Assembly (NCBI GenBank): GCA_042216015.1
Contig: JBDGUI010000023.1
Span: 1 to 31,775, forward strand
DNA: 31,775 nt
Source: Halodesulfurarchaeum sp.
GTDB taxonomy: Archaea; Halobacteriota; Halobacteria; Halobacteriales; Halobacteriaceae
Direction: 5' to 3'
Under the pieces are notes generated by a model. It was given only the letters and a program-made list of their open reading frames with translations. It was not told where the DNA came from and did not search any database. Each line of letters starts with the position of its first letter. Positions within the stretch are counted from its first letter, which is position 1. This document shows positions 1-7,977 of the stretch, one piece after another. A program made the position numbers and the translations under genes.

Positions 1-253
1 CCTCGCATTCCTTGGCCAAGCGAATCTCCCCCTCCTCCTCGTAGACGACCATCGGGACGACCATCGACTCGTGATCCCCGTCGGCCACGCAGGCCGGACA
101 GAGACTGTCGGTTACCTTGAGATACCTGTCCGCGTCCGGCGCGAGCCGCGTGGCCAGTTTATCCGGTTCCGAACAGTGGGTTGACCGGTTTGCTTCGACC
201 AATTCGGATTGTGCCGCCGATTGGTCCAGTGAAAGTCGGACATTGCCTTTCAT
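1..253 (-). CDS. Partial gene (N-terminal 84 codons; runs off the left edge): Tes/GDGT-MAS (MJ0619)-like radical SAM protein
   Basis: Not in the ORF track; hand-translated from ATG at 253: MKGNVRLSLDQSAAQSELVEANRSTHCSEPDKLATRLAPDADRYLKVTDSLCPACVADGDHESMVVPMVVYEEEGEIRLAKECE. TxSLCPxC ... V-Y-E-E-E-G-E-I-x-L-x-K-x-C matches the N-terminal rubredoxin-like metal site (TxSxCPxC...KxCxxHG) of the MJ0619/Tes family. The radical SAM core itself lies outside the window. Confidence 0.65.
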   Translation of the reverse strand, partial: MKGNVRLSLDQSAAQSELVEANRSTHCSEPDKLATRLAPDADRYLKVTDSLCPACVADGDHESMVVPMVVYEEEGEIRLAKECE

Positions 254-372
254 CACGTTACCCACCCACAAGAAAATATATGAGATCTATCACCAAAAAG
301 GTACGTTGAAAATGTGTTACACCTTACCAAATCCAGGGGTACGGCGGCAGCCTTTCGCCGACGACCCGATTC

Positions 373-1428
373 TCAGGCCCGATCCTCTTCGAACGATGAT
401 CTGTCGAGGGGCTGGTCGTGAACGCCCGATTCGGTCACGAGATGGTCGACGAGAGTCATCGGGGTCCTATCGAAGGCGGGGTTTCGAACCGGAACGTCCG
501 CCGGTGCATTCTGCGTGCCGTAAATCTCCCGGAGTTCGGTCGGATCTCGCTCCTCTATTTCGACATCGTCGGCGTTCCGATCGGTGTCGACGGTGGAATT
601 CGGGGCGGCAACGACGAACGGAATGTCGTGGCGATCCGCAAGCACCGCGTGCTTGTACGTCCCGATCTTGTTGAACACCACGCCCTGCTCACCGAAGGTG
701 GAGCCGCCATCGAGGACGACACGATCCGCTCCCACGACGACCGCGTCGATTTCTCCCTCCTGCATGAGGAGCCCACTCGCGTTGTCCGGGATCAGGGTCG
801 TTGGGACGTCCCGCTCCATGAGTTCCGTCGTCGTGATCCGTGATCCCTGGTTGAGTGGTCGCGTCTCGTTCGCGACGACGTCGATCTCCTTGCCGGCCTC
901 GCGAGCGGAGTACACGACCCCGAGCGCGGTTCCCCAGTCGACCGTCGCCAGTGCGCCAGCGTTACAGTGGGTCATGACCGTGTCCTCGGGCCCGAGCAAT
1001 GCGGCCCCGTGTTGCCCGATCGCCCGATTTCGCTCGACGTCCCGATCGGCGAGCGCTTCGGCCGCCTCGAGTGCCAGCCCACGAATCTCTGTGGGGACCT
1101 TTCCCTCCCGTGCCGCCGCAAGTGCCTCCTCGACGCCCCGTTCGAGATTGACGGCCGTCGGTCTGGCCGTCGCGATCCGTTCGGCGTCCCGTTCGACGGC
1201 CGCGAGCAGGGATTCCCGATCCGTCCCGGTGCGCCGATGGGCCGAGAGGGCAACGCCATACGCCCCGGCCGCACCCAGTGCCGGCGCGCCCCTGACCCGG
1301 AGCACCTCGATGCTCTCGACGAGTTCCGAGACCGTTTCGACCCGAACCCTCCGGATGTCCTCGGGAAGCGCCGTCTGATCGACCATCTCGATGCAGTCTC
1401 GGTCGGCGTCCCAGGAGATCGTCCGCAT
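373..1428 (-). CDS. mtnA: S-methyl-5-thioribose-1-phosphate isomerase (eIF2B-like family)
   Basis: Motifs DQTALP, VRGAPALG, ARPTAVNL, THCNAGALATVDWGTALG, ETRPLNQGSR, GADR, NKIGTY, NPAFDRTP. Start moved to MRTISWD (ATG at 1428). Confidence 0.9.
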   Translation of the reverse strand: MRTISWDADRDCIEMVDQTALPEDIRRVRVETVSELVESIEVLRVRGAPALGAAGAYGVALSAHRRTGTDRESLLAAVERDAERIATARPTAVNLERGVEEALAAAREGKVPTEIRGLALEAAEALADRDVERNRAIGQHGAALLGPEDTVMTHCNAGALATVDWGTALGVVYSAREAGKEIDVVANETRPLNQGSRITTTELMERDVPTTLIPDNASGLLMQEGEIDAVVVGADRVVLDGGSTFGEQGVVFNKIGTYKHAVLADRHDIPFVVAAPNSTVDTDRNADDVEIEERDPTELREIYGTQNAPADVPVRNPAFDRTPMTLVDHLVTESGVHDQPLDRSSFEEDRA

Positions 1429-3391: not shown

Positions 3392-4372
3392 TCAAAAGAG
3401 CGCTTCCGCTTCCGAAAGCACGGTGGCAGGCCCGCCGACCGACCACGTCCGCGTTTCGACGCCGACCTCCCTGACCGCCCGCTCGACACGGTCGACGTAC
3501 GCGCTGGTCGTGTTGACGTACACCGTCGCCCCCGTATCAGTCGAGAAGTATGCCGGAACCCCGTCCTCACGAAGTGTTCGAACCGCCTCGAAGATCTCCA
3601 GTGTCCGCGGCTTCCAGTAGATCCAGGCCTCGGGCCCGGTCATCGTCGTCGCGGCGAGACTCAGGGTGTCCTGCTCGGCGACGTCGAATGCCGTCTCGAA
3701 GTCACCCTCCCGAAGCGCCTGTCGCATCGCGGCCAGCTGGTCGTGAACGTGGGCCAGTCGTGACTGCCAGAGGTGGCTTTCGGTCGCCTCCTCGTGAGCC
3801 CATCCCGTCTCCTTGTAGGCCGGGACGATTCCGATCACGATGGCGAGGTCCTCCTCGAGGGGCGAGGGAATCCGCTCCGACCGGCAATCTTCGTCGGTCG
3901 TGCCGGCCCGGAGATCGGAGAAGCCACCGGTCACCGACCGGGCGGCCGAAGCGGAACCCAACCGGGCAATCGTCGAGATTTCGGGACGCGAGAGGTCGAG
4001 TCCGGCGGCGTCGACGGCTGCCATCGCGGCGGCGGCAAAGCCCGAGGACGAGGATCCGAGGCCCACGTTCGTCGGCATCGTGTTCTCGCTGACCAGTTCG
4101 ACCGGGCCGTCGAGAGCCGGGTCCTCGGCGATCGCTCGAACTCGGTCGAGAACCCGCTCGACCCGGGAGGCGCCCTCGCCAGTGAGTTCCTCGCCGTCGA
4201 GCACGTATCGCGAGGAATCGAGATCCGTGTCGAAGGAGACCGTGGTCACCGTCTCTGCCGGGGCCGTCGCGACGCTGATACTGTCGTGATACGGGAACCG
4301 AAGCGCCTCGTCGCGGAGCCCGTGGTACTTGACGAGTCCCTGGATGGGATGTGCCCGGGCGGTGGCCTTCAT
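3392..4372 (-). CDS. mvaD: Haloarchaeal-type ATP-dependent phosphomevalonate decarboxylase (GHMP kinase family)
   Basis: MKATARAHPIQGLVKYHG, PYHDSIS, GLGSSSSGFAA ATP loop, ARLGSASAARS, YFSTDTGATVYVNT. Start at ATG 4372; frame intact. Confidence 0.92.
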   Translation of the reverse strand: MKATARAHPIQGLVKYHGLRDEALRFPYHDSISVATAPAETVTTVSFDTDLDSSRYVLDGEELTGEGASRVERVLDRVRAIAEDPALDGPVELVSENTMPTNVGLGSSSSGFAAAAMAAVDAAGLDLSRPEISTIARLGSASAARSVTGGFSDLRAGTTDEDCRSERIPSPLEEDLAIVIGIVPAYKETGWAHEEATESHLWQSRLAHVHDQLAAMRQALREGDFETAFDVAEQDTLSLAATTMTGPEAWIYWKPRTLEIFEAVRTLREDGVPAYFSTDTGATVYVNTTSAYVDRVERAVREVGVETRTWSVGGPATVLSEAEALF

Positions 4373-4396
4373 GCTCGGGGAGGGGTGCGGACGGCG

Positions 4397-4403
4397 CATA
4401 AAC
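4397..4403 (-). promoter_or_regulatory. Putative TATA box of mvaD (leaderless transcript)
   Basis: Minus strand reads GTTTATG about 25 nt upstream of the mvaD ATG, the typical spacing for haloarchaeal leaderless mRNAs. Confidence 0.5.
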
Positions 4404-4445
4404 GTCACGCATGCCCGAATCCCTGCCCGTTTCGATGATCGGGAT

Positions 4446-5051
4446 TCACGCGCCGGACGAGTCCGGATCCCACCCAGCATATCGGTCGTGTTCCAGATCG
4501 AATCGATCGAGGACGGTCCCGACGATCCGGTCGATCACGTCCCCGATTCCCTGTGGATCGTAGTAAAAGCCAAGAACCGGTGGAACGACCGCGACGCCAC
4601 GCCGCCGGAGCGCAAGAAGGTTCTCGAGATGCGCCTCGTTGAGCGGGGATTCTCGGGGAACCACCACCAGTTGTCGGTCCTCCTTGAGCGTGACGTCTGC
4701 TGCCCGAACGAGCAGGTTTTCCGCATACCCGTTCGCGATCGCCGCGACGGACTTCATCGACCCCGGAACGACGACCATCCCGACCGTCTCGACGGTTCCG
4801 GAGGAGAGCGGCGCTGCCAGTTCGGAGCCATCATAGACGCGTTCGGAGGCCGTCTCGACGGTTTCCACCGTTGCCGCTTCCGAATCCGTTTCGTGGCTCA
4901 TCACCGCTCGCGCACCGTCCGTGAGAACCGTATGCACGGCGAAGTGCTCGCTCAGTGCCCGTATCGTTTCGATCCCGATCGGAATTCCCGAAGCACCCGA
5001 GAGCCCTACCACGAAGCGTTCCCGTTCGGATGTGCTAGCTGGCTCACTCAT
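4446..5051 (-). CDS. ubiX: Flavin prenyltransferase (prFMN synthase)
   Basis: VVGLSGASG, APLSSG, PGSMKSVAAIANG, RAADVTLKE, VPRESPL, PPVLGFY. Start MSEPAS at 5051 overlaps the upstream gene by 8 bp. Confidence 0.92.
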   Translation of the reverse strand: MSEPASTSERERFVVGLSGASGIPIGIETIRALSEHFAVHTVLTDGARAVMSHETDSEAATVETVETASERVYDGSELAAPLSSGTVETVGMVVVPGSMKSVAAIANGYAENLLVRAADVTLKEDRQLVVVPRESPLNEAHLENLLALRRRGVAVVPPVLGFYYDPQGIGDVIDRIVGTVLDRFDLEHDRYAGWDPDSSGA

Positions 5052-5469
5052 CGTCGAGTCGGGTGATCGTCCCCTCGGTCGCGTCGACCCGCACCCGGTC
5101 GCCATCCGAGAATCGGGAAACGGCGTCTTCGATGCAGTCGACACAGGGAACCTCGCCGAGAATGGCCCCGGTCGCGACGATGGTCTCGGTCTCATGGTTG
5201 ATTATCGCGGCCGGTGCGGTCCCCTCCTGTGCCAGCCCGTAGATGACGTACGAGCCGACCGTCGAGCCTTTCCCCCTCGGGAAAACGAGTACCTTTCCGG
5301 CGACGTTCTCCCCGGTCAGGTGATGGTCTTCCTCGATGAATTCGCCGGTCTTCGTCTCCACCGCTCCGTAGAAGCTGATCGGCTCCGGGGAGACCAGCAC
5401 CTCCCCCTCGCCGACGTCACCGGCGATGGGTCGCCCGTTCACCGTGACCGGGTCCTCGGTGTCGGTCAT
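5044..5469 (-). CDS. Phosphomevalonate dehydratase small subunit (aconitase X swiveling domain, DUF126)
   Basis: ISFYGAV..TG, HHLTGENVAGKVLVFPRGKGSTVGSYVIYGL, APAAII, IVATGAILGEVP; 4-bp overlap with the large subunit. Confidence 0.9.
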   Translation of the reverse strand: MTDTEDPVTVNGRPIAGDVGEGEVLVSPEPISFYGAVETKTGEFIEEDHHLTGENVAGKVLVFPRGKGSTVGSYVIYGLAQEGTAPAAIINHETETIVATGAILGEVPCVDCIEDAVSRFSDGDRVRVDATEGTITRLDDE

Positions 5470-6653
5470 TCCTCGATCGCCTCCTCGAGCAGCGAGAGCT
5501 TGTCGTCGAAGCGCACGGTCTGGTCGCCGAATCCGGGGAGGTAACTGGCCGCCTTCGCGGAGTCCGTGGCGGTCGACTCGTAGCCAAGCTCCTCGATCGG
5601 GGCGACCACGTTGCAGGTGTCACTGAGCACCATCCCACCCGCCTCCTCGATCGTCTCGGTGTAGCCCATCCGATCGGCCTGGGACTTCACCGAGTGACTG
5701 GTGCAGACCCAGAGATCCCGATCCAGGGACTCGCCCTCGAGCCGGTCTGCCACGGTCCCGATCTCGTCAACCGAGGAATGGGGGCAGCCGAACACGATGA
5801 GATCGGTGTCCCCGGTGTCGGAGAGGTCACTGTACTCCCGCTCGAGTTCGTCCGCCCCGAATTCGAGGGTTTCGGCGTTCTCGGGTGGATCACTCTCCGT
5901 CGTCACCCCCTCCACGAAGTGCAGGGCGACCGCGCCGGTCGCGGCCATCGCGGCCCCGAGGGACTTCAGCTGATCCGTTGTCGCTCTTTCGACGCCGGCG
6001 AAGTACGGGTTCCCGTCCTCGACGATCCGACCGGTCCAGGATCCCAGTGCGGCGAAGTCCGCCTGGGTCTCGAGTGGGGCATCGACCTCGATCAGGTGTG
6101 TCGGCTCGCGGTTTTCCTCGAGGTGGAGCCCGTATTTCGGGGTCCGGCCGGTGATCGCCGCCGCGAGCGCCGATGGGCCGCCCTCCCGGTTCGTCCGGGC
6201 GCCGATGACGCTGTTCGCAAACGAGACTGCGGATGATTCGGCCCACGCGATGTGCTCGTTCGGACCGGGAAGGTTGCCGGCGAGATACGGCGTACACGTG
6301 AACGAGACGGTCACACCCATCTCGGAGAGAGCGGCGACGATCCGTCGCTGTTTTTCGGCGAACGCCTCGTCGACTCCCATCTCCTGCCAGCGGTCGAGGT
6401 CCATCCCGGCCGGGTTCGCGAAGGTTTGCACCTGGACTGTGGCACCCTCCTCGGCGAACCCCTCGAGAAACTCGACGCCCGGGTCCCCAATCGATTTGTA
6501 GGAGATCCCGGAGGCCTGCGCCGAGCCGATCTCGACGAACTCCTCGGCGCCATAGATGTCCCCGAGCCTGAGGAGCAATTCCATCGACTTCCGTTCGGCC
6601 GGAACGTCGGATTCGAGAAGCGCTTCTTCCTCGGCAGTGAGATCCATTGACAT
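5466..6653 (-). CDS. Phosphomevalonate dehydratase large subunit (aconitase X catalytic domain, DUF521; Fe-S)
   Basis: SGISYKSIGDPG, NPAGMD, FTCTPYL, WAESSAVSFANSVIGARTNREGGPSALAAAITGRTP, FGCPH, DTCNVV, TDSAKAASY; three candidate Fe-S Cys ligands. Start at ATG 6653 or 6647. Confidence 0.9.
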   Translation of the reverse strand: MSMDLTAEEEALLESDVPAERKSMELLLRLGDIYGAEEFVEIGSAQASGISYKSIGDPGVEFLEGFAEEGATVQVQTFANPAGMDLDRWQEMGVDEAFAEKQRRIVAALSEMGVTVSFTCTPYLAGNLPGPNEHIAWAESSAVSFANSVIGARTNREGGPSALAAAITGRTPKYGLHLEENREPTHLIEVDAPLETQADFAALGSWTGRIVEDGNPYFAGVERATTDQLKSLGAAMAATGAVALHFVEGVTTESDPPENAETLEFGADELEREYSDLSDTGDTDLIVFGCPHSSVDEIGTVADRLEGESLDRDLWVCTSHSVKSQADRMGYTETIEEAGGMVLSDTCNVVAPIEELGYESTATDSAKAASYLPGFGDQTVRFDDKLSLLEEAIEE

Positions 6654-6672
6654 TGTTCGTTCTGTGGGTATC

Positions 6673-7977
6673 TTACCTGTAGTCCTCGAGTGAAACGTCT
6701 TCGACACCCGGCACCGTTGCCTCCCTGAAATCGGCTGGGTCCCGGTGTTCCGGGATCGTGGCGTCCACGATCCACTTCGTGAGTGTTCCGGTCTCGAAAT
6801 GCTGTGACGGATCGAGCGAGGATCCCTTCGCGTTCTCGATCGTCGTGACGTCCCGATCGGGCTGAACCCGTGTCGCAACCGCCCACTCCACGGAATCCGG
6901 ATCGGTGGGGTCGATGTCCCTATCGACGACCACCACCCGCTTCATGGACGGGTGAGCGGCGAGTGCGGCCATCCCGGCGTTCTTCGCGTCGCCCTCGGTC
7001 CGCTTCTCGATGGAGACGGCGCCGTGCAGCCACGAACACCCACCCGGAGTGAGCACCACCTCCCGAACGGTCGGGACCGTGTTCTGGACGATGCGATTGA
7101 TTCGCGGTTCCTGGGGGAGGCCCATCAGGTGTGCGTGTTCCCGCCTTCCCGGGACGACGACCCTGACGATGGGGTCCGGTCGAAGGTGAAGCGCCGTGAT
7201 CTCCACGACGGGCTGCTGGCGAATGGTGTCCCAGGTCCGAGAGAGATCCACGAACGGTCCCTCCTCGCGAGTTTCCTCGAGGATCCGGCCGGTCATCACC
7301 AGTTCGGCCGCCGCGGGAACGATAATGCCGCCGTTCACGGTCGTCGTCTCCAGGTCACCCTCCCGCAACGCGTTGGCGACCTCCAGCTCGCTCATGTCGG
7401 GACTGCCCGACGTCGCCGCCGCAAGTTCGACGGCCGGGTGAACCCCGACCACGATGGCGACGTCGAGTGGGCCCTCGGTTCGCTCCCGAATGTCGTGGAG
7501 GTGCCGTTCGACCAGCCGCATGACGAACTCGGAGCCACCGTCGTACATCAGCCGATGGAAGGAGAGGTTGTGCACGCCGGTGTCCGGGTCCCTGGCGATC
7601 ACGATGCCGGAGGCGATGTACTGGCGCTCGTGTTCGGCATAGTAGGTCGGGATCGGAACGTAATCCGCGACGGTCGGTGAATCGGCGACGTGCTCGAAGG
7701 CAGCCTCGGTCGAATCGGCGAGCGGGCGGGGATCGGTCGTCGCCTGCCGCAGCGCGGAGACGACTTCACTCGACCCGACTCCCAGTGCCTCCCCAATGCG
7801 TTCCCGAGAGGAGACCACGTTCGTCACGGCACGGACCGCCGGGTATCCCGCCACGGACTCGAAGACGAGTGGGCGGGACTCGTCCTTCCCGGCGAGTGCC
7901 GCCAGTTCGAATCGGGGATCGACCGGTTCGGTCAGTTCCGTGACGGACGATCCCGACAGGACGGTTCGCAGGCCCAT
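6673..7977 (-). CDS. UbiD-family prFMN-dependent decarboxylase, likely trans-anhydromevalonate-5-phosphate decarboxylase
   Basis: NLSFHRL, RLVERHL, EEGPFVDLSRTWD, GGCSWLH, AHPSMKRVVVVDRDID, VEWAVATRVQPDRD, GSSLDPS; 19 bp upstream of the AcnX genes. Confidence 0.85.
   Translation of the reverse strand: MGLRTVLSGSSVTELTEPVDPRFELAALAGKDESRPLVFESVAGYPAVRAVTNVVSSRERIGEALGVGSSEVVSALRQATTDPRPLADSTEAAFEHVADSPTVADYVPIPTYYAEHERQYIASGIVIARDPDTGVHNLSFHRLMYDGGSEFVMRLVERHLHDIRERTEGPLDVAIVVGVHPAVELAAATSGSPDMSELEVANALREGDLETTTVNGGIIVPAAAELVMTGRILEETREEGPFVDLSRTWDTIRQQPVVEITALHLRPDPIVRVVVPGRREHAHLMGLPQEPRINRIVQNTVPTVREVVLTPGGCSWLHGAVSIEKRTEGDAKNAGMAALAAHPSMKRVVVVDRDIDPTDPDSVEWAVATRVQPDRDVTTIENAKGSSLDPSQHFETGTLTKWIVDATIPEHRDPADFREATVPGVEDVSLEDYR

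Follow-up and report, generated by a model that had tools for sequence, protein, structure and literature searches.

The window, a stretch of 31,775 nucleotides from a Halodesulfurarchaeum sp. assembly (GCA_042216015.1), starts with the first base of contig C20 in the source genome (G000; 1.68 Mb in 51 contigs, with listed completeness of 86.6% and contamination of 0.08%). A minus-strand reading frame runs from an ATG at position 253 to this edge, remains free of stop codons over 84 residues and, as seen on translation, encodes both motifs quoted in the sequence-only reading of this DNA, TDSLCPAC and VVYEEEGEIRLAKECE. The frame had been described there as missed by the ORF track; this reflects no more than its being open at the contig edge, and the exact 84-aa product (P0001) is already present in the protein collection as an NCBI call. 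Three of the four ligands of an N-terminal rubredoxin-like site are visible (Table 1); the fourth, His, would be residue 86, beyond the edge. Since the window opens at base 1 of the contig, the gene (tes, tetraether lipid synthase) is cut by the assembly.

Table 1. Positions of the genes and sequence elements considered in this work (window coordinates unless a genome, contig or locus is named)
Feature	Position	Strand	Basis
tes, 5' end, haloarchaeal clade, 84 codons	1..253	-	translation, profiles
Rubredoxin codons C52 (98-100), C55 (89-91), C83 (5-7)	5..100	-	ligand motif, available text of PMC9433317
AT-rich gap, 119 bp, mtnA stop to tes ATG	254..372	-	GC dip to 0.49
Purine-rich RBS-like octamer	260-267
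TATA-like octamer	273-280
Near-palindrome GTGTTACAC	about 304-312 (window 296-310)	+
mtnA-family isomerase gene, left flank of insertion	373..1428	-	family profile match, genus synteny
Two clustered mevalonate-route endings	3392-7977
tes, 3' end, last 44 codons and TAA	G000:C50:3-137	+	P0009 match
P0122-family genes	L024:6983-8479, L025:6037-7542, L027:2029-3513, L327:7790-9361, L328:564-2087
Degenerate-branch genes	L033/L319 (G397), L317 (G715), L320 (G721), L321-L324 (G671, G665, G655, G660)
mtnA matched in two frames	L093/L094, G001:C2:1553319-1554364

The spacer upstream of tes, a putative promoter region, harbors a TATA-like octamer 27 to 20 bases before the ATG and, closer to it, an RBS-like octamer. 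The near-palindrome in the same spacer has resembling short words upstream of some relatives' tes, as judged by eye only, and no common promoter palindrome was evident by eye among 14 upstream regions compared. A sigma-70 promoter scan, the model of which does not cover archaeal promoters, found none. Farther into the window, a haloarchaeal phosphomevalonate decarboxylase gene (MvaD, 546 bits) adjoins genes for UbiX, a UbiD-family protein and subunits of the DUF126 and AcnX-like types; the latter group resembles the archaeal anhydromevalonate route, and the AcnX-like gene occurs in 11 of 12 genomes of the genus.

The two ends of tes and the insertion site

The full-length haloarchaeal Tes protein P0009, used as a query against G000, matched with its residues 572-615 the first bases of another contig, C50. 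The identity of C50:3-134 to this part of Tes proteins is 59-77% and a stop codon follows; the tail obtains 54.5 bits on a profile of haloarchaeal Tes and less than 3 bits on four other profiles. An AIR-synthase/HypE-like gene starts 88 bases after the TAA. Retrieval of the rest of the gene from an adjacent window had been proposed earlier; C20 offers no such continuation, as it ends at base 1, and the 3' end was found on C50 instead.

The gene order in the genus is informative here. The mtnA gene is found in 10 of the 11 relatives searched and is directly followed by the AIR-synthase-family gene in nine of these ten; in the tenth, G007, tes lies at this place. On C50, the DNA ahead of the AIR-synthase-family gene is similar to that separating mtnA and AIRS in G010 and G001. 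Because of this adjacency in the relatives and the spacer likeness, C20 and C50 are very likely neighbors in the genome, with tes predicted to be inserted alone between mtnA and the AIR-synthase-family gene. The genomes closest by mtnA (G010, G001 and G008) lack the insertion. In G001, mtnA itself is matched in two frames, which represents a frameshift or a sequencing error.

Between the tes ends of C20 and C50, about 486 codons of a frame expected to span about 615 are absent from the assembly: BLAST and HMM searches of G000 returned only the two ends, and an exact-DNA scan of metagenome contigs for the middle part gave no matches. A scan with the P0009 protein returned 80 loci, among which the six best haloarchaeal-type matches were at most 71% identical. 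A homolog search restricted to 46-147 aa returned only P0001 itself, the sole member of its cluster. Metagenome contigs covering the window start carry up to 30 loose letters, and in the loose end of a related contig the frame continues past a His that takes the place of the fourth ligand.

The behavior of these contigs in runs X1 and X2, which come from a single study, possibly the source of the genome itself, suggests how the gap arose. In X2, a contig with a depth of 16.5 matches window positions 26-700 exactly and then stops; an 89-base contig with a depth of 128 matches 1-55 and passes the edge, and a third one, with a depth of 107, comes in at 26-65. A more abundant population thus shares this coding DNA of tes, and the assembly branches there. 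In X1, a contig matching 34-700 extends by another 146 letters, which disagree with window positions 1-33, so the tes alleles may be mosaic. Several contigs per run of the same salt-lake study overlap window positions 1-65 with 90-100% identity and depths up to 294, and several tes-bearing populations appear to coexist in the lake.

The near-identity of window positions 1-65 to higher-depth contigs of other populations might also mean that the tes ends were brought into G000 from a co-occurring organism by misassembly or misbinning. This we regard as very unlikely: in both runs, contigs agree without a single difference from the end of mtnA through the spacer and over most of the start of tes, both flanks fit the synteny of the genus, and the listed contamination is minute. 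A recent insertion disrupted in its unseen middle, or never expressed, is improbable too, though to a lesser degree. The length of the unseen part, the lack of the insertion in the three closest relatives and the non-fitting X1 letters would all be compatible with such a broken or silent copy; both visible ends, however, are open, conserved and oriented as expected, the gap falls on DNA common to more abundant populations, which points to an assembly cause, and tes is likewise broken across contigs in other MAGs (G005, G705). With good confidence, the G000 copy is taken to be intact.

Haloarchaeal Tes and its look-alikes

The fragment matches the zinc-ribbon family PF23545 of Pfam (30 bits at a cut-off of 27) and, with an E of 1.1e-4, the Tes model NF045702 over its positions 2-31. 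On the latter, the cut-off of which (450 bits) is set for the whole protein, it obtains 21-23 bits. Taken together, these matches argue for more than a chance resemblance. A phmmer search of the fragment against the PDB gave no match; its best matches are full-length haloarchaeal Tes proteins (P0009, 62% over 84 aa; P0008, 83% over 47 aa).

Proteins with a similar N-terminus but another nature are also encountered in this class. A scan of 401 Halobacteria genomes (394 with a completeness of 90% or more) with NF045702 at E <= 1e-40 returned matches in 25 genomes, in three of them over the cut-off and in 22 at 232-263 bits, covering only part of the model; Haloferax volcanii, used as a control, gave no Tes match. 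In an alignment of 24 low-scoring proteins, the N-cluster Cys were lacking and Thr and Val occupied the columns of Met439 and Tyr459; for the one low-scoring protein scanned against the model collection, the nearest family was TrsS (NF045646). These TrsS-like proteins share with Tes the N-terminal rubredoxin motif and the radical-SAM core; unlike Tes, they comprise about 460-520 aa, lack the N-cluster Cys and score 230-282 bits on NF045702. Their named carriers include H. regularis (WP_092691939, L045), Haloquadratum walsbyi and Halobellus ruber.

An assignment of the window fragment to the TrsS-like paralogs, which would disconnect it from tetraethers, draws on the common rubredoxin motif and on the greater frequency of these paralogs in Halobacteria. 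It was tried and rejected, and we consider it barely credible. The fragment obtains 82.7 bits on the profile of haloarchaeal Tes (built on 25 rows), 40.9 on that of Thermoplasmatota, 38.3 on that of other archaea, 14.6 on that of other Halobacteriota and only 10.7 on the TrsS-like one. In the fragment, 27 residues separate the second rubredoxin Cys from the third, as in 25/25 haloarchaeal Tes rows and in 10/10 Thermoplasmatota rows, vs. 20 residues in 27/27 rows of other Halobacteriota, in 23/24 TrsS-like rows and in MJ0619. The identity of the fragment to the paralog of G038 is 32%, and the C50 tail is specific to haloarchaeal Tes. Judging from these profiles and spacers, the fragment almost certainly belongs to the Tes clade, in line with the family call made before.

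What the unseen part of the protein might look like can be judged from full-length relatives. These comprise MAG proteins of Halodesulfurarchaeum and Halanaeroarchaeum and those of three named species, Halalkaliarchaeum desulfuricum (P0004, WP_119818579), Natronobacterium gregoryi (P0015, WP_005581564) and Salinilacihabitans rarus (P0294); NCBI already lists several of them as "tetraether lipid synthase Tes". The four scored in one set obtained 641-682 bits on NF045702 (641-683 over all those scored), so the full-length relatives scored pass the equivalog cut-off of the family represented by the Tes proteins of Zeng et al. 2022 (Saci_0703, MA_1486 and Maeo_0574, as given in the available part of PMC8941075).

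The ligands were numbered according to the accessible text of Lloyd et al. 2022 (PMC9433317) and an alignment to the structure of MJ0619 (GDGT-MAS) from Methanocaldococcus jannaschii (PDB 7TOL, 7TOM); the three Cys columns of the C-terminal cluster were picked by conservation. Of 20 distinct proteins of the haloarchaeal clade, 19 retain all 16 columns checked, i.e., those of the ligands, Met439 and Tyr459 (24 of 25 rows with duplicates). The N-terminal auxiliary ligands (C73, C77, C80 and His) are likewise retained in 19 of the 20, the CX3CX2C motif and the fourth rubredoxin ligand His in all 25 rows. The Tes of G003 aligns to 7TOL over residues 37-545 (E 1.6e-115), and the structure model of P0009 (mean pLDDT 65) has 7TOM and 7TOL as top matches (E 1e-36).

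The window fragment has in common with MJ0619 the three Cys of the rubredoxin pattern C-X2-C...C-X2-H, and its full-length relatives further resemble MJ0619 in the N-cluster Cys3/His, the CX3CX2C motif, Met439, Tyr459 and the overall fold. Haloarchaeal Tes is about 37% identical to MJ0619. It differs in that its rubredoxin loop is longer by seven residues and its N-terminus by about 40, its composition is acidic and its C-terminal tail is specific to the clade. The substitution pattern (dN/dS of 0.09-0.35 in 15 of 21 pairs of seven tes genes, the other six being saturated) indicates purifying selection on the full-length genes.

A sister branch of the clade, represented in two families by seven genomes, retains both the rubredoxin and the radical-SAM motif; most or all Cys of the N- and C-clusters are lost there and Met439 is replaced by Arg or Lys. 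Probably, these degenerate proteins catalyze another reaction. With 450.5 bits, one of them just clears the Tes cut-off; members of the branch count as false positives when Tes is annotated. Its ligand loss suggests that function can drift in the haloarchaeal Tes clade.

Distribution, partner gene and origin of the clade

Haloarchaeal Tes, whole or partial, was detected in 12 of 401 genomes evenly sampled from the order, and the degenerate type in seven. In the phylum, the NF045702 cut-off is passed in 176 of 251 genomes, all of them outside Halobacteria. Within the genus, tes is present in four of 12 genomes and is absent from all three that are 98-99% complete, so the gene is dispensable. 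G007 harbors two full-length copies (C9 and C112; L026 and L027), about 70% alike, one of them with the partner gene described below, and a partial copy at a contig end in G017 (L065, contig C21) has an internal TGA and ends early near residue 442, possibly being a broken tes.

The presence of such genes in Halobacteria is not new. Zeng et al. 2022 (PMC8941075, in the part available) listed 20 Halobacteria genomes with Tes homologs of unclear function and reported no GDGT; N. gregoryi SP2 is among the labels of the supplementary tree. The novelty of the locus is hence less than the sequence-only reading had assumed. Compared with our classification, that list, as available, pools two families, i.e., true Tes and the TrsS-like proteins of H. 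regularis, Haloquadratum and Halobellus ruber. In this host group, the homologs had been noted and never explained; with the ligand-complete Tes clade set apart from its paralogs, a B12-type partner gene travelling with it and three cultured carriers, the rule that Halobacteria make only diethers is open to a direct test.

The partner is a radical SAM gene of about 498 aa (the P0122 family), located directly after tes in G003, G020 and G007 and directly before it in G681. It was found in five of the 401 genomes of the order, in three families; all five carry haloarchaeal Tes, with the two genes adjacent in four (these relatives are not independent). In G000, of which 86.6% is recovered, protein and alignment queries did not find the partner, and the tes locus has no room for it. 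Outside haloarchaea, the nearest relatives (40-46%) come from Nitrososphaerota and Geothermarchaeales and are annotated as B12-binding radical SAM proteins; homologs occur in genomes of Ferroglobus, Bathyarchaeia and Thermoplasmatales; the family-model matches are weak and of the B12/MiaB type. This spread fits the distribution of Grs as given in the available part of PMC8473941. According to the accessible text of a recent preprint (bioRxiv 10.1101/2025.10.20.683597), the known ring synthases and methylases of GDGT as well as a desaturase belong to the B12-type radical SAM enzymes. The P0122 family is possibly a ring synthase (Grs), a methylase or a desaturase, with Gmm, Cgm and Ted among the candidates. 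Gms was considered as well and rejected: it is described as a SPASM-domain enzyme (PMC11186832, in part available), and the partner matches the B12/MiaB type.

Phylogenetic evidence on the origin of the clade comes from a main tree (47 of 120 rows; quick LG+G4, insertion columns removed). The eight rows of haloarchaeal Tes form one clade (SH-aLRT 100) nested in a group of Thermoplasmatota, DPANN and Hydrothermarchaeota (SH-aLRT 99), apart from the 14 rows of other Halobacteriota, and Tes is split from the TrsS-like proteins (SH-aLRT 100). A 103-row tree, with 16 TrsS-like rows and one partial row left out, gave the same pattern. The placement in a tree together with MJ0619 and validated Tes proteins, as proposed earlier, was thus achieved in part: haloarchaeal Tes nests among archaeal Tes, but MJ0619 (7TOL) was compared by alignment only and the validated proteins are absent from the tree.

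Under LG+G4, the AU test rejected the union of haloarchaeal Tes with the 14 other Halobacteriota rows (p 0.0076), also after adding Archaeoglobi (p 0.0007), so vertical inheritance from methanogen relatives was discarded; the groups had been chosen after seeing the first tree. Haloarchaeal Tes and TrsS-like proteins as one side of a branch, which equals rooting on the haloarchaeal branch, were not rejected (p 0.099). Since the acidic rows fail the composition check, acquisition of tes from outside Halobacteriota is considered only likely, with no donor named. The tree region is that of Thermoplasmatales Tes (e.g., P0057 of Thermoplasma volcanium), sharing the 27-residue spacer at about 51% identity; tes is core in Thermoplasmatales, whereas it is patchy and dispensable in haloarchaea. 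Thermoplasma membranes are dominated by GDGT.

Within the clade, the Tes of Ha. desulfuricum falls together with one from Halodesulfurarchaeum (99), and the genes flanking haloarchaeal tes vary between loci, which fits transfer of the gene between haloarchaea. The clade would have entered haloarchaea once, from outside Halobacteriota, and moved between their genera afterwards.

Possible activity of haloarchaeal Tes

In the explanation that we prefer, by a modest margin of belief, the lone tes between mtnA and the AIR-synthase-family gene encodes an enzyme that likely joins the tail ends of saturated isoprenoid ether lipids, and likely only conditionally or at a trace level. Its directly observed part comprises both gene ends, the insertion site, the subclade and the ligand sets of the full-length relatives. 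Biphytanyl-forming activity under some condition, taken by itself, appears slightly favored over its absence. With the unassembled middle taken as intact, the enzyme would bind two archaeal lipids of the saturated isoprenoid ether type, by homology to MJ0619 (PMC9433317, in the part available), and two SAM-derived 5'-deoxyadenosyl radicals would abstract hydrogen from two terminal methyls. The first substrate radical may be held as a carbon-sulfur adduct on the C-terminal [4Fe-4S] cluster until the second one displaces the sulfur, so that a C-C bond is formed to give macrocyclic archaeol, GTGT or GDGT. The saturated substrate could be supplied by GGR-family genes, three matches to which score over the cut-off in G000.

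Published lipid data on one carrier of the gene gave a negative result. Bale 2019 (PMC6423904), in its accessible part, reports on 13 strains, with GDGT only in the four methanogens and macrocyclic archaeol in one methanogen; in Ha. desulfuricum AArc-Sl, cultured at 37 C under anaerobic conditions with sulfur and pyruvate, neither was found. The chromosome of AArc-Sl (3,313,120 bp; PMC6176080) bears the gene for P0004, a ligand-complete Tes. A negative result for Hd. formicicum HSR6 may have no bearing here, since near-complete genomes of its genus lack tes. The proteomes of Sorokin 2018 are from AArc1, not AArc-Sl, and so have no bearing on Tes expression. No halobacterial tetraether is reported in the available parts of PMC8941075, PMC6423904 and PMC10704169; a search of titles and abstracts, with most subscription journals outside its range, found none on tetraethers in Halobacteria or on a separation of Tes from TrsS-like proteins.

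The AArc-Sl result can be read in two ways. It is compatible with activity in view of the precedent of M. acetivorans, which has a validated Tes and makes trace GDGT until tes is overexpressed (bioRxiv 10.1101/2025.10.20.683597, in part available). It would also be expected if haloarchaeal Tes had altered chemistry or another substrate, yielding a different isoprenoid or a minor product and no ordinary GDGT or macrocyclic archaeol. Such a change would also accord with the long stem and the private C-terminal tail of the clade, with the loss of auxiliary clusters in the sister branch and with MA_1114, a Tes homolog of M. acetivorans that gave 0.03% macrocyclic archaeol and no GDGT (PMC8941075, in the part available). 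It is at odds with the retention of the ligand and active-site columns in nearly all distinct proteins and with the putative GDGT-modifying type of B12 radical SAM protein travelling with tes. Altered chemistry is the strongest of the alternatives, being nevertheless rather unlikely, and conditional or trace joining of lipid tails is retained as the preferred reading.

On a broader scale, scattered haloarchaea, Halodesulfurarchaeum lineages among them, may make membrane-spanning lipids via a horizontally spreading tes, under conditions not sampled so far; we offer this only tentatively, holding the contrary to be likelier. As C20-C25 extended archaeol is present in relatives like Hd. formicicum, the products could then include extended tetraethers or macrocycles. 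Halobacteria are diether-only by the textbook, and Ha. desulfuricum, N. gregoryi and S. rarus allow a direct test. If they proved negative, even a Tes that satisfies all sequence tests would be no sure sign of GDGT, a point of importance to surveys that assign sources from genomes. Archaeol-to-GDGT ratios serve as salinity indicators. If tetraethers are made, the source assignment of GDGTs in hypersaline sediments would change, and haloarchaea would become a possible source, and their Tes a possible enzyme, for extended tetraethers of the kind described in 2026 (PMC13003381, in the part available). In lineages with the B12-type partner, further ring closure or methylation might be expected, and the diether-only rule for Halobacteria would be broken.
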